From positions 1 to 64,000 of IMG/VR virus record IMGVR_UViG_3300036045_000005: 64,000 nt of DNA; one strand, given 5' to 3'. The notes beneath the pieces were generated by a model. That model was not told where the DNA came from. It saw nothing but the letters and a program-made list of their open reading frames with translations, and ran no database searches. This document shows, piece by piece, positions 5,107 to 56,869 of the stretch; the first letter of the stretch is position 1; each line of letters starts with the position of its first letter. The position numbers and the translations under genes are program-made. The DNA is from a virus.

Positions 5107-6324
5107 CTATATCTTCTCTCTATCTTGCTTCCAGTTAAATTGGGCGTGTCGTTGTTGAACATCACTACTGGCCCACCGCGCATAGGACTGGATAACGGTT
5201 TGCGGACTGTTGCCCAGGACGCGGGCAACGGTAGTGACATCAGCACCACGACGCAGTGCCTCAATGCTCCAGGCGTGTCGCCAGGCGTGGGGGTTGGCGT
5301 ATGCCTCTACACCCGCCTCAATCGCCAGACTGATCATGACCTGATAAATGCCGTCGCGGGTCATGGGGCCACGAATGCCAGGGAATAGGGCATCACCACC
5401 GGGATGAATCGTGAGCCAGCGAGACAATACGTCACACGCCTCTCCGTCCAGGTAAATCTGTCGGCTACGCGGGTAGCCGCCCCGTCCCTTCTCCCACACT
5501 GTCGCCGTACCCGCTTCCAGATTGAGGCGGTCAACCCGCATGGAGGCCACGCCACCAACGCGACAGGCAGAACTGGCAAGCACTTGCAGGATGGCCTCGT
5601 TGCGGACACCGAGGGCAAGTTTGCCCTTAAGCGGGATAGGGAATTGCCCGGTGCGGCCGGTGAAAAGCAGATCGCCTTCATCAACGGCCGTCACTACTGC
5701 GCGGACGCAACACCATTCAACCAGGGCTTCGCCAGACAGTCGGCCGTAGCTAGCTGGCCGGGGAATGTATTTATAGCGGGTGTAGTGGTGCAAGGTGACA
5801 CGGCCGTTCTGTGGGTCAACATCTTCGCGGCGCAACCGATCCAGTTCGCCCACTTTGGCCCCAGTCTCCTCCTTCAGCCAGTAGTAAGCCCAATCGCGCA
5901 GGGCGTACAGGCGGGCAACCCAAAGGATGTGCCGGGCATCCTCCACTGGAATGGCCTTTGGTTCTTCGGTGGAGGGTGGGGGGATGGATAGGCGGGCGGC
6001 GGGATTGTTGGGGATCAGCCCTTCGTCGTGCAGCCACTTGAAAAATTGGCGGCCAGCACGGATGTAGTTGCGGAGGCTATCTTGTGACAAGCCTCCTTCT
6101 GCGGTAGGGCGCACATCACTATCTGCCCAACGGCTCTCCCGTTCCAACAGTTCAGCCCGCCAACGGCGCAAATCGTTGATAGTGACTGCCGTTACCTCGA
6201 CATCACCAATGCTTTTTACCAGGGCCAACAGACGACCAGTGAACCACTGACGGGTACTTTCGGAGACTTCTCCCCTCCTTGAAAGGTCAAAGTGAGCGAT
6301 AGCTTCAGAGAGTTTCATAGCCAC
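5107..6324 (-). CDS. int: Tyrosine integrase
   Basis: N-terminal SAM-like region; catalytic R (SACR), K (EKG), HAWR, LGNS, Y (QSY); adjacent to a tRNA fragment. Confidence 0.93.
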   Translation of the reverse strand: MAMKLSEAIAHFDLSRRGEVSESTRQWFTGRLLALVKSIGDVEVTAVTINDLRRWRAELLERESRWADSDVRPTAEGGLSQDSLRNYIRAGRQFFKWLHDEGLIPNNPAARLSIPPPSTEEPKAIPVEDARHILWVARLYALRDWAYYWLKEETGAKVGELDRLRREDVDPQNGRVTLHHYTRYKYIPRPASYGRLSGEALVEWCCVRAVVTAVDEGDLLFTGRTGQFPIPLKGKLALGVRNEAILQVLASSACRVGGVASMRVDRLNLEAGTATVWEKGRGGYPRSRQIYLDGEACDVLSRWLTIHPGGDALFPGIRGPMTRDGIYQVMISLAIEAGVEAYANPHAWRHAWSIEALRRGADVTTVARVLGNSPQTVIQSYARWASSDVQQRHAQFNWKQDREKI

Positions 6325-35610: not shown

Positions 35611-36084
35611 ATGGCAATATGTGAAGGTTCAAGCGGCGCAGACCTGCTGGTAGAGTATTCCGACGATCCGAGCCTGACCTGGAATGATGTCGGGCACACC
35701 TGGAACGAAGTGAATGGTGTGGTGGGTATGCTCGACGTGACGGGCGGCGACAAGGAAGCGGCGATGAAACGCACCTTTGGCGGCAACGTCATCGCGGGTA
35801 TGACTGGGGCTGGTTTGCAAAATGTCGTTCTGGATGTGGTTTTTGAGAACGATGCCAACAGCTTCCTGGAATTCCTGACTGACACGTGGGATGGCACGGG
35901 TGAACGGTGCTATTACATTCGCTGGTCTTATAACGAGGGTGCCTCTGGCGCGTTACGACGCACGGCCAAAGTCGCCTTGCTGACCAACCCGTTTACGGGC
36001 GGTAATGCGGGTGATGCGAACCCGGTGAGCAAGCAGTTGACGCATGTGGTTGACGGTATTATTCATCGGGATGCAGTTCCTTGA
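35611..36084 (+). CDS. Putative major tail tube protein
   Basis: Position before the tail chaperone and tape measure; 157 aa; AAGGAG SD. Confidence 0.65.
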   Translation: MAICEGSSGADLLVEYSDDPSLTWNDVGHTWNEVNGVVGMLDVTGGDKEAAMKRTFGGNVIAGMTGAGLQNVVLDVVFENDANSFLEFLTDTWDGTGERCYYIRWSYNEGASGALRRTAKVALLTNPFTGGNAGDANPVSKQLTHVVDGIIHRDAVP

Positions 36085-36131
36085 TCGTAAGGGGCGGATC
36101 TCAGACCCGCCCCTATAATAGGAGATGTGCC

Positions 36132-36953
36132 GTGGGCAATCGGGAGGTCTACGTACCGCAACACGTTTTTCATACGGCCGCTGCTGAGGATTATCCGGGG
36201 GTGACGGCCGTTTCCGCCAAACTCATCTTCCCCAACCCGTTTACATTAGGTGATTACAAACGTTGGTACCGGGCACTCATGCCGAACCTGGCGAACAAGG
36301 AAGACCCGGATAACGATGCTTTGCTGCGCGAATACCGGGCAGCGATGACGATTGCGGCGTTGGAGGAGATAATGCCAGAGGGTGATGTTGAGCCCAACCT
36401 GCATAACCCGGATGCGTTTAATCTGCGTAATGTGGTGATTGTGGACGGCCGTGTGCCAGACGATCTACCCATCCCTTTTGCTACCTGGGTTTGTGATTGT
36501 GCCGAGGCGTATTTTGGCAGCTACGTCGTCCTGGAGAATCGCCAGACGAAGATCGCCCGGTTGACCCGCTTCCGGCTGTCATCCAACACCATTGACGTGG
36601 CCGAACCGATGCTTGCCGGTTTGTTGCCGGATTTGCAGACTTACACTGGCAGCGTGACCTTTGCAAAGGTGATGACGAAGACGAGTTATTCGCGTTGGCA
36701 AAAGTCGTTACGTGCTTTGCCCGGCGTGGAAGCCACCGACATTGACAACACCTTCTTCATGCGCCAATACCGGGCGGCGTTGGAACTGATTGAGAGTTGG
36801 GCGGTGGGAGATATACCGTTAAAGCTGATGAAGCACAAAGATGGGGAGGAAGCCCCTTTGCTGCTGGCCTCGTTCCTGGTGCTGGCGGCCGAGGCATATC
36901 TTGCCAAGACGATGACCTTAAAAAAAATGCCCGCGCTGTATGGGGTCACATAA
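36132..36953 (+). CDS. Tail assembly chaperone (G)
   Basis: Between tube and tape measure; ends just after a slippery A-run; AGGAG SD before GTG 36132. Confidence 0.7.
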   Translation: MGNREVYVPQHVFHTAAAEDYPGVTAVSAKLIFPNPFTLGDYKRWYRALMPNLANKEDPDNDALLREYRAAMTIAALEEIMPEGDVEPNLHNPDAFNLRNVVIVDGRVPDDLPIPFATWVCDCAEAYFGSYVVLENRQTKIARLTRFRLSSNTIDVAEPMLAGLLPDLQTYTGSVTFAKVMTKTSYSRWQKSLRALPGVEATDIDNTFFMRQYRAALELIESWAVGDIPLKLMKHKDGEEAPLLLASFLVLAAEAYLAKTMTLKKMPALYGVT

Positions 36954-37243
36954 TTCGGAAGGGTCGGGATGGCCCACCGCCCTGGTCGCTGGCGTTGGCG
37001 CGGGAGTGCCTGGATTATTACGGGAATTGGTTGCACTTCCCGCGCCCCGATGGCCCGTTGGCGCAAGATGAATATGAGATGGATTGTGTACATAATGCCT
37101 GGGCGATTGAGCGGATTTATTCTTCGGAGAAGGATAATGAGTTCAAGCGGCGAAACGGCCGTTTCCGGCTTTGGGTAATGTCTAAATCGCCAGAGGATGA
37201 GCAAGGCGTTTGGCTATGTCCCTGGCTCGAAGATGAAGAATAA
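36920..37243 (+). CDS. Tail chaperone -1 frameshift extension (GT)
   Basis: A AAA AAA at 36920-36926; the -1 frame stays open to 37243 (KKNARAVWGH...HFPRPDGPLAQD). Confidence 0.75.
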   Translation, partial: KKNARAVWGHIIRKGRDGPPPWSLALARECLDYYGNWLHFPRPDGPLAQDEYEMDCVHNAWAIERIYSSEKDNEFKRRNGRFRLWVMSKSPEDEQGVWLCPWLEDEE

Positions 37244-48670: not shown

Positions 48671-49414
48671 ATGAGCCTGGCAAATGCAGTTAAAGGGGCA
48701 CGGCACAGCGGGCAGGAAATCACCTGGACAGATGAGAGCGGGCTGGCCGTTGACCTGACCGGGGCGACGCTCACCGGCTTTATCCAGAATCAGGCGACCG
48801 GCCGTATCCGGGTGATTGATGGCGATCTAGATTTGGTGACGGCCGACGAGGGCGTGTTTTCCTGGGACTATGGCGTAAATGATGTGCTGACGGCCGGAAA
48901 GTTCATCGTGCAGTTTGTGGCGACCTATGGAGATGGCTCAAAGGAAAAGACCGTCATTAACGAAGACCACGAGTGGACGGTTTCCGAAGCCTATGATGCC
49001 ATTTCTAACGGCGATGTGATCACCATGTATATCGCCGACACCTGGAACTTTACCATCCACAATCTGGAAGATATTAGTTCCTACGAAGTGCTGACCCTGA
49101 TTGTCCGCAGTCCATCACAATTGACCGACAACGACACCCTGCTTTACGTCCGTTCTGATGATGGCCTTATCCGCATTGGCGGCGCGGCTCCGGCTGCTGC
49201 TTCTGGCGGTTCGCTCACGATTGGCACGGGGCAGGTAACGGCTTTGATTTCTATGAGCGAGACGGCTGTGCTGACCCCATCACAGGCCAGTAGCACCAAA
49301 TATCGCTGGTATGTGAAGGCATTTGATATTACACCCAACCCAGATCGAGCGTTGACGCTGGCTACCGGTCAGTTTGTCCTAAACGCGGGCGGTGTGCTGT
49401 CGGTTACGCCATAG
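48671..49414 (+). CDS. BppU-like baseplate / adaptor-domain protein
   Basis: AVDLTGATL, D...AG.F.VQF..TY.DG. Confidence 0.65.
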   Translation: MSLANAVKGARHSGQEITWTDESGLAVDLTGATLTGFIQNQATGRIRVIDGDLDLVTADEGVFSWDYGVNDVLTAGKFIVQFVATYGDGSKEKTVINEDHEWTVSEAYDAISNGDVITMYIADTWNFTIHNLEDISSYEVLTLIVRSPSQLTDNDTLLYVRSDDGLIRIGGAAPAAASGGSLTIGTGQVTALISMSETAVLTPSQASSTKYRWYVKAFDITPNPDRALTLATGQFVLNAGGVLSVTP

Positions 49415-49418
49415 CAAT

Positions 49419-50270
49419 ATGAAACGGGTTATTGGCCTTCTCTTGTTTTTGGTGTTATCTGGCGTGGATACGACCGATGGGGTGGGGGAGTATCACACCT
49501 TCCTGCCGCTTGTGGTTGGGCCAGAACCGAAGGCGGGCGTGGTTTGGCTGGACACCGAACCGGCCGATGTGAACATCCTGCATTTTGAGTGGTGGTATGA
49601 CTACTCGTTGCGCGGCCGTGATGTGCCAGGCGTAGAGTTCGTACCGTTCTTCTGGTGTGACAAGTGGCCGCCTCATGCTTACGGCCGTAAAAGCCAGGAC
49701 TATTTCGAGTTGGCCGAACGTCACCTGACACCTGATTACAATAGCTACCTGCTCTTCCTAAATGAGCCAGACCTGACCGGCGACGACACAGGCGGCCAGT
49801 GCGATATGGAGCCACGCCGGGCGGCGTACCTGTACAAGGCTATCCGCGAACAACTTCCACACGCCAAATTGGTAGGCCCGGCCGTTTCTCACCGCGATTA
49901 TTGGAGTAACTGGCTCTGGCTGCGGACGTGGTACGGGCTGATTGACGAGATGGGGTTACGGCCGCCAGAAGTGGCCGCTATCCACACCTACATGAGCGAG
50001 AACCCGCAGTGGATTGTGGATTCTCTGTTCACGATGCTGGCCGAGTTTCCCGGCTCGCCGGGCACAGTTTGGGTCACTGAGTTTGGGAACTGCGATCCGG
50101 CCGTTGTGCAATGGATGTTAGACACCTGGCAGGCGGACGGCCGTGTGTCCCGCTACGCTTACTTCACGGTGCGCGATTTTGAGCCGCACTGCGAGAACCT
50201 GTTTTATAACACGCCTGGCTACTCGCTCACGCCTGCTGGCCGTGTGTGGGTGAAGGAGCATCCTCGATGA
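49419..50270 (+). CDS. Secreted clan GH-A glycoside hydrolase (GH128/Asl1-like)
   Basis: Signal peptide, FLPLV motif, WWYDY, EFVP, FLNEPD (acid/base), IHTY, VWVTEFG (nucleophile), RYAYF. Confidence 0.82.
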   Translation: MKRVIGLLLFLVLSGVDTTDGVGEYHTFLPLVVGPEPKAGVVWLDTEPADVNILHFEWWYDYSLRGRDVPGVEFVPFFWCDKWPPHAYGRKSQDYFELAERHLTPDYNSYLLFLNEPDLTGDDTGGQCDMEPRRAAYLYKAIREQLPHAKLVGPAVSHRDYWSNWLWLRTWYGLIDEMGLRPPEVAAIHTYMSENPQWIVDSLFTMLAEFPGSPGTVWVTEFGNCDPAVVQWMLDTWQADGRVSRYAYFTVRDFEPHCENLFYNTPGYSLTPAGRVWVKEHPR

Positions 50271-50827
50271 GACGAACCCCCGGCTATATTGCCTTCCTGG
50301 TGCTTCTCCTATTAGTGGTCTGCCTGGCGCTGGTCTTGTGGATATTGCCGGCCGATCCTGGCGTGATAACGCCCACGCCCATCACGCCGCAACCGGAGAC
50401 GGCCGCGCCGACGGATACAATGGAGAGCTACCCAACGGCCACCAACCCTTCAGCCACGTCTACCTCCTCACCAACGGCCGTTGTTTTGCTGACGTTCACG
50501 GCGACACCCGCCCCGCCGACATTGACACCACCATCGTTCCCGACGGCCGTGCCTACAATGACAGCCACCTTGTCGCCGACCGCAACACAACTCCCGTTTC
50601 CCTCAGCCACACCTACGGCCACGCTGACGCGCCTGCCAGAGAGCTACGTGGTGCAGCGTGATGATTGGCTGATCAAGATAGCCATTCGGCTGTATGGCGG
50701 CCGGTGGGGTTGGGAGTGGCGGTGTTTGTATGAGCGGAACCGGGCGGTGATCGGGGATAACCCACACCTGATTTTTCGCGGCCAGGTCTTGCGGGGAATA
50801 CGGCCGTGTGGAGGGCAAGGCGAATGA
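50267..50827 (+). CDS. Membrane-anchored Pro/Thr-linker LysM protein
   Basis: TM helix, PTAT-rich linker, YVVQRDDWLIKIA...N..VIGDNPHLIFRGQVL. Confidence 0.85.
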   Translation: MRRTPGYIAFLVLLLLVVCLALVLWILPADPGVITPTPITPQPETAAPTDTMESYPTATNPSATSTSSPTAVVLLTFTATPAPPTLTPPSFPTAVPTMTATLSPTATQLPFPSATPTATLTRLPESYVVQRDDWLIKIAIRLYGGRWGWEWRCLYERNRAVIGDNPHLIFRGQVLRGIRPCGGQGE

Positions 50828-51027
50828 TGCAGCGATTGATTGACCGGCTACTCGCGCCGCGCATCGCCCGCATCCAGGAAGCGGAGCGTGACCGCTTCCG
50901 CCGTCTGATTGGGCAGGTGATGGAGCGACATGAATCACCGGCTGTGCTGCTGGCGGTGGGGCAGTTATTGGAATTACTCGACGAGGAATACAACCATGAT
51001 GGTGACGATGGAGAGGACGGTTGTTGA
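50824..51027 (+). CDS. Hypothetical protein
   Basis: ATGA overlap with the LysM gene. Confidence 0.55.
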   Translation: MMQRLIDRLLAPRIARIQEAERDRFRRLIGQVMERHESPAVLLAVGQLLELLDEEYNHDGDDGEDGC

Positions 51028-52210
51028 AGCAACAACTGTTGAAACGACAACGGTTGGCTGGCTGGCTGCCGCTACCAGGAGGGAGATCATCATTAACAGC
51101 TTGCTAGACCTTCAGGCAATTGTAGAACATGCCCTGGCCGGGATCACCATCGCCGACCGGGAAACCGGCGAGATCATCTACGCCAATCACGAAGCGGCCG
51201 AAATCCTCGGTCTGTCGCGTGATGATGTCAGGATGGCTGCTGGCACGTTGGTGGAACTTATCTATCTCAACGGCGATCCCTTTCCTATCTCTGAGACGGC
51301 CGTGATGAAGGCGCGACGATCCGGCCAGCGCGAACGTGCCACATTCGGCGTGAAGTATCCTGACGGCTCTGTGCGTTGGGTTTCATCGAAGGCTGAGCCG
51401 CGCATACTGCCCGATGGCACGGCCGTGATTGTTGCCAATCTGATGGGGATTACGGACGAAATCAAAGGGCAGCAAGAGCAACTGGAAGCGCAGCGTGAAC
51501 GGCTGGAGTTGGCCGAGTTGCAACAAAACGCCATTGATAATTTGAGCCACGAGATACGCACCCCGCTTAACCTGATTATGGGCTATGCGGATTTGCTGCT
51601 ACACGGGACAGTACCGGATGACCGGATAGCCCACACGTTGGGCATCATCCACCGCGAGGCTAAAGCGGTGGAGTGGATGGCCGAGACGCTCTTGTGGCTG
51701 GGCAAATTGGAATCTGGCAGCGAACTCGCATTTGAGCCATTAGACCTGACGGCCGTTGTCCGGTACCGGGCAGACGCGATCAGTCTGCTGGCTGAGCGTG
51801 AGCAAGTCGCGCTGATAATCGCTGGCGAACTGCCCGCTTGTCGCGTCTCCGGCCATGAAACCCTCCTTTCCCTGGCGATAGGCAACCTGGTTGGCAACGC
51901 CATCAAATTCACCAAGTACAGCGAAACTAGGCAGGTAACGGTCAGCCTGGAAGTGGGGGAGGGGGAGGCGACGGTCTCCGTCACCGATACCGGCATTGGT
52001 ATCAAGCCTGAACATCTATCGCTCATCTTCGAGAAATTCCGCCAGTTGGACGGTGGCAGCACCCGCAAATTCAGGGGGACGGGTATTGGGCTGCACTTTG
52101 TAAAACTCGTTGCGCAGGCCCATGGCGGCCGTGTGGAAGTGGAAAGTGAATTTGGCAAGGGGTCAACGTTCCGGTTGGTGTTGCCCCTGGAGGTCCCCCC
52201 TAGTGCATGA
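50996..52210 (+). CDS. Soluble PAS-domain sensor histidine kinase
   Basis: PAS/PAC (IIYANHEAAEILG, DGSVRWV), H box SHEIRTPL, N box NLVGNAIKFT, G1 DTGIGI, F box IFEKF, G2 GTGIGL. Confidence 0.95.
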   Translation: MMVTMERTVVEATTVETTTVGWLAAATRREIIINSLLDLQAIVEHALAGITIADRETGEIIYANHEAAEILGLSRDDVRMAAGTLVELIYLNGDPFPISETAVMKARRSGQRERATFGVKYPDGSVRWVSSKAEPRILPDGTAVIVANLMGITDEIKGQQEQLEAQRERLELAELQQNAIDNLSHEIRTPLNLIMGYADLLLHGTVPDDRIAHTLGIIHREAKAVEWMAETLLWLGKLESGSELAFEPLDLTAVVRYRADAISLLAEREQVALIIAGELPACRVSGHETLLSLAIGNLVGNAIKFTKYSETRQVTVSLEVGEGEATVSVTDTGIGIKPEHLSLIFEKFRQLDGGSTRKFRGTGIGLHFVKLVAQAHGGRVEVESEFGKGSTFRLVLPLEVPPSA

Positions 52211-52463
52211 AGCAGCCCGGCAGTTAGCGCAACTGGAAGAAACATCTCGTGCCAACGGGGTGGAGATTGCGGCCGTGCATGAAGACCTGCGCGAACTCAA
52301 GGATGAATTTCGGGGACTGTTTAAGCAGCTTCGGGGCGATCTGGCCTACATGCAGAGCCTCCAATTGAAGGATGCCGAAGGGACAAAAAAAAATTGGCAA
52401 GGGTGGCCGCCTTTGTTGGAGACACTTTACTTCCCAGGCTCAACCAGATTGAGCGACAGCTAA
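52203..52463 (+). CDS. Coiled-coil protein (frame-0 part of a putative frameshifted gene)
   Basis: GGAGG SD before GTG 52203, which overlaps the kinase stop; heptad pattern up to the A9 run. Confidence 0.6.
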   Translation: MHEAARQLAQLEETSRANGVEIAAVHEDLRELKDEFRGLFKQLRGDLAYMQSLQLKDAEGTKKNWQGWPPLLETLYFPGSTRLSDS

Positions 52464-52831
52464 CGGAACTGGAGCGACTAAGGTTTGAATCTCTTGAACA
52501 GCGTTTGGTGGAATTGGAGAAGCGCATTGACAGGCAGGACACGCGATGGGAACGAGTAACGGCCGCGACCGGCACAGGCCGCCTGGATGCTCGTGCCGCC
52601 TTGCACCAGATGATGGTGAAGGCGTTCAGCCTGGCGGACATGGCAACCCTCTGTTTGGAGATGGACATTGAGTACGACGAGCTACCAGGCGACACCATTT
52701 CTCACAAGGTCACGTCGCTCATTGCTTACATCGGTCGGCGGAACCAACGCTCTGATGGTGAGTGGGATTTGTCAAATCTGGTGAAAAAATTGAAGGAGAA
52801 ACGGCCGTCTTACAAGTGGCCGGATGTGTGA
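52394..52831 (+). CDS. Coiled coil plus EAD7-like domain (-1 frame part)
   Basis: LHQMMVKAFSLADMATLCLEMDIEYDELPGDTISHKVTSLIAYIGRR...LVKKLKEKRP..W resembles the EAD7 pattern; begins right after the A9 run. Confidence 0.75.
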   Translation: MARVAAFVGDTLLPRLNQIERQLTELERLRFESLEQRLVELEKRIDRQDTRWERVTAATGTGRLDARAALHQMMVKAFSLADMATLCLEMDIEYDELPGDTISHKVTSLIAYIGRRNQRSDGEWDLSNLVKKLKEKRPSYKWPDV

Positions 52832-53295
52832 TGAAAGAGATTATTCAAATGATGGTCACGGCCGTGATGCTGGCAATTTCTCAGCCAGCAGACCCCACGC
52901 CGATTTTTACCCCGCCACCTGATAATTACACAGGCTCTTTGTCTCGCTACGATCCGCAGGTGATGGAGCGGGTGATTGAGTGGCGATATGAACATAATGT
53001 TCCAGCCGGATTTGACCCCTGGCCGACATACGCCACCTATGTGGCGGTGGTGGATTGCCGCAACGTGGGCCGTTCCGGCTGGATGACCCTGACCATTGAG
53101 GGGGAGACACGGCCGCCGGAGCGAATCTATGTCACCGATTGCGCGACACCTGGAACACCAGCTGCGGAGTGGATGGAGCGTGAGCAAATAGCGGCAGAGA
53201 TAGATTACGGTTCCTGGGTGCGATTTGGCATTGAAGATGGAAAGGGAGCATGGGCTGAGATCGTGCTGGATGACGATACCATGCTCAGTAATTAG
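52831..53295 (+). CDS. Exported protein, possible RlpA-like double-psi beta-barrel
   Basis: Signal-like N-terminus; S.Y...VAV.DC..VG...VTDC...EID pattern. Confidence 0.55.
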   Translation: MKEIIQMMVTAVMLAISQPADPTPIFTPPPDNYTGSLSRYDPQVMERVIEWRYEHNVPAGFDPWPTYATYVAVVDCRNVGRSGWMTLTIEGETRPPERIYVTDCATPGTPAAEWMEREQIAAEIDYGSWVRFGIEDGKGAWAEIVLDDDTMLSN

Positions 53296-53304
53296 TGCGG
53301 TTTC

Positions 53305-53411
53305 CGCGCAACCCACCTTTCTCCCTTCCCCCAGGGGTTGCGCGTTTACCGGCGGCGACGGCTTCCTCCTGGCCGTCGCCGCTCTCCATTTTACAGACGA
53401 TGTAAATGGGG
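53305..53411. ncRNA. Candidate structured RNA (three adjacent hairpins)
   Basis: Stems 53305-53344, 53352-53382 and 53384-53411, the first two with C/T-rich loops. Confidence 0.4.
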
Positions 53412-54898: not shown

Positions 54899-55304
54899 AC
54901 CAATCATCTTTCTTGCGGTGTTGGCACTTGCCCTATGTGGTCTGGCGACGCTTGCCCTACGGCCGACGGTGGACAAGGTGGCGACGGCCGTCATCGAGGA
55001 GCAGACGCGCACCGATCCCATGGAGAGCCTGATCACCTATTCCGCCGAAACGGAGCGCAAGACTAGCCCGATCATCTACATCTTCTGTGGCATGTTGCCG
55101 CTGGTAGTATTATTTACGGCCGTGTTCTTCATGGAACACGCCACCGACTTTCTGCGGGAGCGTCGGCTGTCAAGGCGGAAAGGTCGGCGACACTCCCCCA
55201 CCCTGCCACTCCCTCACCGGCCGGACGTATCACATCTATACGAACCATCTCGTGTCCCCCTACCTGCCCCGCCACATGACAGTCAAGGAGATCGCCAATG
55301 GTAA
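54891..55304 (+). CDS. Two-TM membrane protein
   Basis: Two hydrophobic helices and a Pro-rich tail; AGGAG SD. Confidence 0.7.
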   Translation: MDKPIIFLAVLALALCGLATLALRPTVDKVATAVIEEQTRTDPMESLITYSAETERKTSPIIYIFCGMLPLVVLFTAVFFMEHATDFLRERRLSRRKGRRHSPTLPLPHRPDVSHLYEPSRVPLPAPPHDSQGDRQW

Positions 55305-56869
55305 AAGTGACGGCTGTCTTGCTGCTCTTCCTGCTGCTGACCGCCTGCGCCACCCCACCTGCTCAACCGGGCGCAGGGGGTTATAGTTATGATCCAGCGG
55401 TCAACGCCACTATTGCTGCGCGTGGTGCCCAGGATGCGGCGGCGACCTATGAGGCAGTGCAACGGGCAACAACCGTATCGGTGCAGCAAACGGCTGTTGC
55501 TGCTCAGAACGCCACAGGAACGGTGCAGGCGGCGGCCACCCGGACAGCAGCGGTTGCTACCAGCACGGCCGAAAGCCTGAGCATCCAAGCTACCAGTATT
55601 GCGCTGGCGGCCGTGCAGACAGGCAACGCCATCAACGCCCAGGCCACGCAGATCGCAGTGGTGGCCGAGCAGACTCGATTGGCCCAGGAAGCGGCTAATA
55701 TCGAGATGGCTCGCGCCGACCAGCAACGACGGCTAGAAAACCAGCGCGACCGGGAGGAGATGTGGAACACCATTATCTTCCCAGCCCTGGTGTTGGTGGC
55801 GGTGTTGGTGGCTGTTGGCGGCATCGTGTATGCCGCCGTCTATATCTGGCGCCGGACGCAGCCGGTCATCCATGTGACCATCAACGGCCGTGATGTGCCG
55901 ATGATCCTGGATGGACAGCGCGGTGGCTACAAATTGCTGCCGCAAAATGTGATAGGTGATGTGCTGGCGCCGCCTGCCCCGGCGAGTGCGGCCGTGCAGC
56001 CCGAACCACTACCTGCCTTGCCGGAAGGCCACGTAGTGATTGCTGGCCCAACGCGTAGCGGGAAGACAACCACCCTCCTGGCAATTTTGCAACACCGGCA
56101 AGACGTGGTGGCGATAGACCCGCACGGGGCACCAGGCAAATGGGGCGATGCCCGTATGCTTGGTGCGGGGCGCAATTTTCAGGAAATTGCAGCCTTCATG
56201 CAATGGATGGAAGCGGAATTGAATCGCCGTGCGCAAGCATTGGCGGCCGACGCAAACACCAAGTTTCCTGAGATGACAGTGGTGGCCGATGAATTACCGG
56301 CCATAGCCGATGAGCTGGGTGGAGATCGTGCCTACAGCAGTTGGAAGAAGTGGGTGCGCGAAGGATGGAAATTCGGATTGTACTTTGTCTTTTCGTCTCA
56401 AAGTCTCCAGGTAAAGCCATTGGGACTAGAAGGCGAAAAGGACATACTGCGGAACTTCGTGGCCGCTATCGCTCTGGGCGGGGAGGCGGTTGAACGGTAT
56501 CCAGATTTGGCGCGGGGGATGGAACGTCCGGCTGTGCTGCGCACACTGCGCGGGACTGCCCGTGTCATCATCCCGCAAGTGGGATCGCCATCCTCCACCT
56601 CACCGACCAATGGCTATGTCGCCCCACCGGTCATCAACCTGCCCAATCCGCGCAGCCAGGCGGAGGTAGACGGCCGTGCCATGGATGGTGTTATCGCCGA
56701 GTGCGATTCGCTCAATGACGTAGGTCGTGTGCTGATGGATGCTGGCCCGGATGATATGGAAACACGGCCGTCTGGTCAGATGTTGCGGGAACGGGTGCGG
56801 CCGGCGTTGGCCTGGCGCATTAACTATCTGAGTTGCCCAGATTCAAGTCGGATATTGATCGGACGATAA
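55298..56869 (+). CDS. Lipoprotein / TM-anchored FtsK-HerA-superfamily ATPase
   Basis: Lipobox LLTAC, Ala/Thr-rich coil, TM helix, GPTRSGKT, AIDPH, ELNRR, VVADE, REGWKFG...SSQS. Confidence 0.8.
   Translation: MVKVTAVLLLFLLLTACATPPAQPGAGGYSYDPAVNATIAARGAQDAAATYEAVQRATTVSVQQTAVAAQNATGTVQAAATRTAAVATSTAESLSIQATSIALAAVQTGNAINAQATQIAVVAEQTRLAQEAANIEMARADQQRRLENQRDREEMWNTIIFPALVLVAVLVAVGGIVYAAVYIWRRTQPVIHVTINGRDVPMILDGQRGGYKLLPQNVIGDVLAPPAPASAAVQPEPLPALPEGHVVIAGPTRSGKTTTLLAILQHRQDVVAIDPHGAPGKWGDARMLGAGRNFQEIAAFMQWMEAELNRRAQALAADANTKFPEMTVVADELPAIADELGGDRAYSSWKKWVREGWKFGLYFVFSSQSLQVKPLGLEGEKDILRNFVAAIALGGEAVERYPDLARGMERPAVLRTLRGTARVIIPQVGSPSSTSPTNGYVAPPVINLPNPRSQAEVDGRAMDGVIAECDSLNDVGRVLMDAGPDDMETRPSGQMLRERVRPALAWRINYLSCPDSSRILIGR

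Follow-up and report, generated by a model that had tools for sequence, protein, structure and literature searches.

The viral record IMGVR_UViG_3300036045_000005, whose first 64 kb (hereafter the window, the whole stretch of DNA analysed) we studied, carries at the 3′ end of its late operon a small protein made of a helical stalk and a single effector-associated domain (EAD) of the EAD7 family, encoded immediately after a soluble sensor histidine kinase for which the phage has no receiver. We give about even chances to the idea that this protein is an EAD7-only adaptor mimic that plugs into, or jams, the EAD7 network of the host, beside an orphan kinase acting on a host regulator. It would be the most economical explanation because the phage encodes a bare adaptor and its probable hosts use EAD7 massively.

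A first-pass annotation made from the sequence letters had likened the end of the gene following the kinase (52601-52831) to EAD7, and a hidden Markov model (HMM) search confirmed it: positions 52601-52756 matched PF19960 over its profile positions 1-52 of 62 (E = 2.6e-16), scoring 59.6 bits where the cut-off is 32, and a six-frame search scored the domain at 58.1 bits. It occupies residues 70-121 of a 145-amino-acid (aa) open reading frame (ORF) in frame 2 and is the single EAD7 copy in the whole phage. Apart from its stalk and EAD7, this soluble protein has no effector or sensor domain, no transmembrane segment and no PADLOC or PHROG match. At E≤1e-3, an exhaustive phmmer search of 1.84 billion representative sequences retrieved 484 homologues, which, self matches apart, were 24-54% identical to the phage protein. 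Domains were scanned in the 118 homologues of at most 800 aa among the 149 non-self matches listed, the other 31 being longer, and 117 of these 118 carried EAD7. Their partner domains included EAD1, EAD8, AAA_16, NACHT, nSTAND1, STAND, TIR and KAP; neither HisKA nor a receiver domain appeared in the best 25 of 75 partner families. The most orthologue-like EAD7 protein (P0180) is encoded on a 4.6-kb contig, and GenBank phages gave no match to the phage protein. Short contigs from the same sediment metagenomes matched, with 3-6 differences, only the EAD7 motif (52609-52643) and the N and G1 boxes of the kinase (51874-51917 and 51979-52014). Since only these conserved cores match, other EAD7 and kinase genes must abound in the community.

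The AF2 model of the 145-aa protein (pLDDT 90.7) predicts a long helix at residues 2-58 followed by a compact helical bundle at residues 62-136, with helices at 62-77, 80-89, 102-116 and 126-136. The EAD7 part is thus small, all-α-helical and non-enzymatic, and lies at the C-terminus of the protein. When residues 61-145 were compared with known structures using VIA-align, Death-fold chains filled 14 of the top 15 rows, the other being a helical protein designed de novo. The matches included the CARDs of caspase-1, NOD1, NLRC4, RIP2 and Apaf-1, the death domains of Fas/FADD and MyD88, the PEA-15 DED, the AIM2 pyrin domain, the viral FLIP (vFLIP) MC159 (2f1s_A, Z 6.5) and a bacterial death-like domain. 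The modelled bundle is consistent with a Death-like fold.

The kinase encoded upstream is an orphan, intact and without a phage-encoded receiver. Its PAS (51107-51424, E = 5.3e-10), HisKA (51524-51718, E = 1.3e-10) and HATPase_c (51854-52192, E = 3.7e-28) domains all scored above the Pfam cut-offs, and the five boxes of the family are present: H (SHEIRTPLN, 51545-51571, with H185 at 51548-51550), N (GNLVGNAIKF, 51881-51910), G1 (DTGIGI, 51986-52003), F (FEKFRQ, 52028-52045) and G2 (GTGIGL, 52076-52093). It must be soluble because it contains no hydrophobic stretch or transmembrane segment (maximum KD19 1.29). The initial description of an intact soluble PAS-HisKA-HATPase kinase was therefore accurate, and the lack of a response regulator that it reported for the window extends to the entire phage, as a search of all 73,635 bp of the record for the receiver domain PF00072 gave no match at E≤1, with 14 of 14 control genomes positive. 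The closest relatives, P0003 and P0004, are 47-51% identical including the PAS domain, which among 5.8 billion proteins is common only to these two (with P0271); they measure 340-362 aa and are encoded on assembly contigs of 31-33 kb. The next one, the membrane-anchored P0006, is 47% identical over the core. The catalytic residues and many PAS residues are invariant among the phage kinase and these relatives. Phage-borne kinases as such are already known, since eight PHROG families (the best being phrog_10912, 'kinase', 7.1e-49) and 166 GenBank phage records match this one, the latter all with <60% identity and only 4 covering ≥80% of the query; PADLOC gave a weak HATPase match only. It has the HisKA/HATPase_c core in common with the proteins of phrog_10912 and the seven further PHROG families and with the 'sensor histidine kinase' of Bacillus phage proCM3, but differs from other phage kinases in being soluble, PAS-only, receiver-less and chained to EAD7, and many of the matched records look like host fragments.

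The record, 73,635 bp long with direct terminal repeats and a 100% complete rating, is a complete temperate tailed phage. Nearly all of its long ORFs lie on the plus strand; it encodes a DNA methyltransferase, a large terminase, a portal, a major head protein and a tape measure, and no tRNA genes were found in it. Its temperate nature follows from the tyrosine integrase gene given first below. The kinase and the adaptor belong to an overlapping chain at 49.4-53.4 kb, whose gene boundaries were established by direct sequence reading and by a codon-usage score for which 13 long phage genes served as the training set:

5107-6324, minus strand: tyrosine integrase (PF00589, 70.8 bits).
49392-50270, plus strand: secreted glycosyl hydrolase (Glyco_hydro_cc; PF11790, E = 6.2e-22) with a hydrophobic N-terminus and no PHROG match; first gene of the overlapping chain.
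50267-50827, plus strand: membrane-anchored Pro/Thr-rich protein with a LysM-like C-terminus; transmembrane segment at residues 8-26 (KD19 3.38); residues 118-176 match phrog_380, endolysin (1.2e-8).
50824-51027, plus strand: 67-aa helical ORF with an acidic tail, ATGA-chained to the stop of the LysM-like gene; coding score 0.48 per codon.
50996-52210, plus strand: soluble sensor histidine kinase, 404 aa (P0002), from Pfam, the boxes and a gene call of that length.
52203-52391, plus strand: frame-0 coiled-coil N-terminal part of the adaptor gene, 63 codons; GTG start with GGAGG 10 nt upstream; coding score 0.48.
52385-52393, plus strand: run of nine A (A9), candidate slip site, with A_AAA_AAA in the zero frame, where the coding signal switches.
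52394-52831, plus strand: frame −1 part of the adaptor gene, stalk and C-terminal EAD7 (PF19960, 59.6 bits; AF2 model).
52831-53295, plus strand: candidate RlpA-like DPBB protein (ESM Atlas), 154 aa, with a hydrophobic N-terminus; last gene of the chain.
53351-53383, plus strand: terminator-like hairpin of 13 pairs, 10 of them G-C, following the last gene of the chain.

Where the first-pass annotation had placed two genes (50824-52831), we thus found three, the 67-aa ORF, the kinase and the coiled-coil/EAD7 gene. Position 50824, taken at first as the kinase start, is that of the 67-aa ORF; the kinase frame upstream of 50996 scores −0.32 and is non-coding, and the ORF's own frame scores 0.48 per codon versus −0.51 and −0.53 for the other two. 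The 67-aa product has no match in Pfam, PHROG or PADLOC and its Atlas model is weak (pLDDT 0.61). The successive junctions overlap by ATGA (50267/50270), ATGA (50824/50827), 32 nt, 8 nt and TGATG: the kinase starts inside the end of the 67-aa ORF, the GTG at 52203 overlaps the kinase stop (52208-52210) and the ATG at 52831 of the DPBB-like gene overlaps the stop of the EAD7 gene. Although the overlapping chain proposed earlier between a LysM and a DPBB-like gene can be read directly in the sequence, the names of its two ends are less firm. The LysM-like protein has no Pfam match and owes its name to the PHROG endolysin match, and the DPBB candidate, without Pfam or PHROG match, owes its own to the ESM Atlas, where it matched viral clusters at 0.90-0.91, including one in which 11% of the members carry DPBB_1, and where its TM to a DPBB_1 cluster was 0.51. 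'Lysis cassette' is a weak designation for this region because no holin or classical endolysin was recognised. The kinase/EAD7 module is the 3′ end of a late operon, given the overlapping junctions, the terminator-like hairpin and the lack of any sigma-70-like plus-strand promoter between 46794 and 53631 (Chloroflexota promoters may differ). Its description as late-expressed stands as regards this position; late timing itself is what the position suggests. Further downstream, a gene at 55298-56869 (plus strand) encodes an FtsK/HerA-like ATPase with an N-terminal lipobox-like region (PADLOC model mad8, 2.8e-7; FtsK_SpoIIIE weakly), a 35%-identical relative of which sits on G341:C632.

The adaptor gene, initially called simply the next gene, begins in frame 0 (52203-52391) and continues in frame −1 (52394-52831), the two parts meeting at the A9 run. 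Frame 0 scores 0.48 from the GTG at 52203 up to A9 and its tail, as far as the stop (52392-52463), −0.27, whereas frame −1 scores −0.42 ahead of A9 and 0.30 past it. The run reads ACA AAA AAA AAT in frame 0, and A_AAA_AAA at 52385-52391 is therefore a canonical slippery heptamer; the −1 frame is open from 52325. A9 is the longest homopolymer in the genome, but 48 of 200 Markov-1 simulations contained one, so that its presence alone is not rare. The second longest A-run, A8 at 36920-36927, has A_AAA_AAA (36920-36926) in the same phase and lies near the end of a gene (36054-37243 region) ahead of the tape measure, with a coding −1 ORF up to 37243; we take this place before the tape measure to be the classic one for the tail-chaperone frameshift, and 36054-37243 is a putative tail-assembly-chaperone −1 frameshift. 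A-runs support −1 frameshifting or transcriptional slippage in the tail-chaperone G/GT genes of tailed phages and in dnaX. The A9 site resembles these in its zero-frame A_AAA_AAA and in the short and long products expected from one start, but differs from them in having no significant downstream stimulator. A9 was unchanged in 46-kb and 1.8-kb contigs from two runs of a single sample, possibly the one from which the record itself derives; fragments from a second sample and study showed 0 differences, but stop on either side of 52327-52424. The 4 runs listed as containing the sequence included no RNA data set. We favour a programmed −1 slip or transcriptional slippage giving a product of ~209 aa; alternatively, there may be two overlapping genes, or a broken one.

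The phage carries a clear mark of its host lineage. In its 73.6 kb we counted 139 copies of the octamer palindrome ACGGCCGT versus 1.7 expected from base composition, including 3 in the kinase gene and 1 in the EAD7 gene (examples at 50474, 50543, 50800, 51296, 51419, 51749 and 52801). When 185,579 species genomes were scanned for three copies of ACGGCCGT separated by short gaps, at least 120 stretches were returned. The matches listed included 35 loci of >2 kb with ≥1.4 copies per kb, and 24 of the 25 named ones were from Chloroflexota (metagenome-assembled genomes (MAGs) of Ardenticatenaceae, Ca. Leptovillus affinis, Anaerolinea sp. and Anaerolineae/'Chloroflexi' MAGs), the remaining one being a contig of Acidimicrobiales, on which there were 4 copies. 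Ardenticatenaceae, Ca. Leptovillus and other Anaerolineae genomes have 1.5-3.5 copies per kb, and the five taken as candidate hosts (G001-G005) fall within one order. Because this enrichment is common to the phage and those genomes, the host is most likely an Anaerolineae bacterium of the order containing Ardenticatenaceae. Anaerolineae of this kind are filamentous. A literature search on ACGGCCGT retrieved only primers and the like. The copies of the palindrome in the kinase gene had been taken as a sign that it is no recent stray; they are indeed present, but the argument fails because any gene recently acquired from a host of this kind would come with them. A better argument comes from the 167 genomes of the candidate host order, which contained no kinase match at E≤1e-50 and no close match to either the phage kinase or P0006 among the best 11-13 candidates per genome. 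Of 401 genomes from the class, 5 encode homologues of the large terminase (TerL) with 54-65% identity (L312-L316, L326-L330); their contigs have no other protein in common with the phage and 0 copies of ACGGCCGT, which points to mosaic terminase exchange. Queries with the kinase, the EAD7 protein, the FtsK-like ATPase and the glycosyl hydrolase found nothing syntenic in those genomes.

The candidate hosts are rich in EAD7. We counted 29, 22, 15, 25 and 38 matches in G001-G005 and none in any of 14 control genomes. Across the order, scoring up to 35 candidates per genome and including one unpublished genome (G535), 158 of 167 genomes contained EAD7, many of them with 15-35 copies. The host domains nearest to that of the phage (43-44% identity) belong to a 730-aa EAD7-NACHT protein and a 514-aa AAA_16-EAD7 protein, and a CHAT-EAD7 protease is also encoded in a candidate host (L307). 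The effector-EAD7 fusions anticipated by the first-pass annotation hence exist; receiver domains were absent from the best 25 of the 75 partner families mentioned above. The protein that best matches the phage kinase in each of the five candidate hosts is a giant PAS/GAF histidine kinase (1200-1480 aa; 35-39% similarity over the core only), convergent with a methyltransferase/PD-(D/E)XK nuclease/EAD7 operon and 3-5 kb from its EAD7 gene (L307-L311; the Pfam scan covered L307, where the EAD7 gene is CHAT-EAD7). We considered this neighbourhood as a functional link and discarded it, as it probably reflects the conserved synteny of one orthologous locus.

How might the phage use this module? The 67-aa protein, the kinase and the adaptor would be produced at the same time as the structural proteins. 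Slipping by −1 on A_AAA_AAA in A9 would yield the ~209-aa adaptor, translation without slip an 86-aa stalk-only product, and initiation at the internal TTG an alternative product of 145 aa. The EAD7 tip would then dock homotypically on the EAD7 domains of host proteins such as STAND/NACHT NTPases, CHAT proteases and other effectors. Because it brings no effector, the phage protein would cap or sequester the host adaptors, so that sensors lose their connection to suicide effectors at the very time when the late proteins that usually trigger STAND sensors build up. Portal, terminase, capsid and tail proteins act as triggers of many STAND sensors (PMC13581612), and late co-expression would fit a decoy for this reason. 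Meanwhile, the PAS domain of the kinase would read a cytoplasmic cue, leading the kinase to phosphorylate or dephosphorylate a host response regulator. We infer the binding to host EAD7 proteins, the decoy effect, the late timing, the slip and the kinase target; the link between the kinase and the adaptor is their shared operon position, so that the word 'coupled', used for them initially, translates into adjacency in an operon only. The decoy or hijack of host EAD7 complexes, also proposed initially, gains from the domain being a true EAD7 and from its abundance in the predicted host lineage, which make it plausible.

Adaptor-only EAD7 proteins recur in phages, since we verified two others on IMG/VR contigs, both with an N-terminal EAD7: a 147-aa protein near an integrase (L334:2973-3413) and a 150-aa protein between an endolysin-like metallopeptidase and terS/terL (L339:4285-4737). 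Several observations nonetheless speak against the adaptor mimic. Synteny of kinase and EAD7 genes was not found elsewhere: no EAD7 lay near any of 160 kinase loci (80 from IMG/VR with ≤46% identity, all but one, a 100-residue segment, ≤35%, and at least 80 from metagenomes with ≤41%), none of which had the ACGGCCGT palindrome either, and no kinase lay near the two other phage EAD7 genes (8.6 and 10.1 kb of sequence). IMG/VR scans with the EAD7 protein, TerL, P0006, P0003 and a kinase alignment likewise yielded no relative, syntenic or otherwise. Among the EAD7 domains of the five candidate host genomes, none exceeds 44% identity to that of the phage. At the structural level, a Foldseek search of the PDB with the EAD7 model gave no match at E≤0.001, and the VIA-align scores (Z 6.4-7.4, root-mean-square deviation 2.3-3.7 over 70-80 residues) are in a range common for helical bundles. 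Anti-defence genes are more often early, and this one is late. Finally, the RNA 3′ of A9 forms a weak G-U-rich hairpin (z −0.02 versus shuffles), and a GAAGGG motif 10-11 nt before the TTG at 52394 could allow independent initiation there.

The same genes can be arranged into other schemes. The stalk-EAD7 protein may be the output adaptor of the kinase, docking it on host EAD7 assemblies, or bringing host EAD7 proteins to it, in place of a receiver; the kinase would then modify the host immune complex or be controlled by it. The phage has no receiver, an 8-nt overlap and a good Shine-Dalgarno sequence tie the adaptor gene to the kinase gene, and EADs are described as joining signalling domains to core components (PMC7159879); in addition, the best kinase match lies 3-5 kb from an EAD7 gene in 5 of 5 candidate hosts (CHAT-EAD7 in L307). 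We regard this arrangement as unlikely, since the pairing is absent from all 160 kinase loci and both phage EAD7 loci, and the host adjacency is that of one orthologous convergent locus amid housekeeping genes (methyltransferase, PD-(D/E)XK nuclease, ABC transporter), expected by chance at ~4% in a rough estimate and involving a kinase similar to that of the phage over the core only. Moreover, no histidine kinase figures among the vWA-associated effectors in the available portion of Kaur et al. (PMC7159879). A complex prediction for a kinase dimer with the 145-aa EAD7 protein (score 0.01) gave no answer and weighs neither way. An opposite effect on the host also seems improbable to us, namely that an oligomeric stalk clusters host EAD7 suicide effectors (CHAT, TIR) late in infection to aid lysis, with the kinase setting the time. 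The late-operon position of the module would suit it, as would its location amid cell-wall-related genes (glycosyl hydrolase, LysM-like, DPBB-like) without a recognised classical holin or endolysin, and the EAD7-only gene that follows an endolysin-like gene in L339. Yet the adaptor is soluble, without any transmembrane segment, dependence on variable host defence effectors would be fragile, and the viral adaptor-only proteins known so far are inhibitors, not activators (PMC10312443).

Decay is a further reading: a genuine frameshift of one base might have destroyed the adaptor gene, and the kinase might be a captured host-type gene without phage role. The adaptor gene does extend over two frames, from which gene callers derive products of 107 and 142 aa. 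We nevertheless hold decay to be very unlikely because both adaptor halves are phage-like in coding score (0.48 and 0.30) and switch exactly at A9, the kinase boxes are intact, P0003 and P0004 conserve the residues of its PAS domain and core, and overlapping starts and stops chain the genes. The absence of a close cellular kinase among the candidates from the 167 host-order genomes and the fragments without differences in a second sample and study argue in the same direction. The most elaborate possibility is a long shot: in a complete signalling device, EAD7 docking would replace the response regulator, the adaptor would connect the kinase to the STAND/CHAT EAD7 assemblies of the host, the cell state sensed by PAS would turn the host suicide machinery off, or on for lysis, and the A9 slip would set the ratio of stalk-only to stalk-EAD7 protein.

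Returning to the adaptor mimic, its nearest published counterpart is pCARD, a 141-aa CARD-only protein of Acinetobacter phage 133 that reduces gasdermin cleavage and weakens CARD-dependent defence (Wein et al., PMC10312443); poxviral pyrin-only proteins (POPs) are cited there as its model. By analogy, the EAD7 protein would also be a small phage protein whose sole domain is a homotypic Death-fold-type adaptor found in host immune proteins too, with no effector. It differs from pCARD in that its EAD7 (PF19960), known here from its sequence, sits on a helical stalk of ~60-120 residues, and in that its gene is split at A9 and located in a late operon, beside an orphan kinase, in a phage of a Chloroflexota host lineage with 15-38 EAD7 copies. 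Since a phage CARD-only inhibitor of a bacterial CARD system is already published (PMC10312443), presenting the module as an undescribed system was too strong; the adaptor-decoy idea is well grounded and has this analogue. The vFLIP MC159 and the poxvirus pyrin-only proteins, which block homotypic immune signalling, are adaptor-only viral proteins as well, but they come from eukaryotic viruses and belong to other Death-fold subfamilies, so that the resemblance is weak and structural only. EADs have been proposed to be homotypic adaptors in conflict systems of multicellular bacteria, with EAD7 recruiting effectors (Kaur, Burroughs, Iyer, Aravind 2020, PMC7159879; 2021, PMC8195603), and the distribution of EAD7 over sensor and effector proteins in the candidate hosts is of the type to which this proposal applies. 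The phage domain belongs to the same HMM family and is likewise terminal, all-helical and non-enzymatic; however, in the systems described there a core component encoded within the same operon or genome bears a second EAD copy, whereas the phage has one copy and no NTPase, vWA or effector, making it an orphan adaptor. With a single EAD7 in 73.6 kb, the phage is not a member of an EAD-coupled conflict system but only a user of its adaptor, whose partners would be host proteins. We found no description of a phage-encoded EAD7 in the accessible EAD/EAD7 literature, although the supplementary tables of PMC7159879 and PMC8195603 might list viral cases.

The receiver-less kinase and the A9 frame switch are two testable oddities, and ACGGCCGT offers a practical host-lineage marker for such phages. 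If the signalling device existed, it would represent a new wiring of two-component chemistry to Death-fold-like immune adaptors. To our knowledge, EADs have so far been predicted adaptors, little tested apart from CARD-like cases, and we know of almost nothing on phage-host conflict in Chloroflexota. A bare viral EAD7 provides a direct handle on EAD7-EAD7 binding and on which host complexes matter, and would add another bacterial adaptor family, the second, as well as the Chloroflexota, to the theme of adaptor-only viral decoys (vFLIP, POPs, pCARD).

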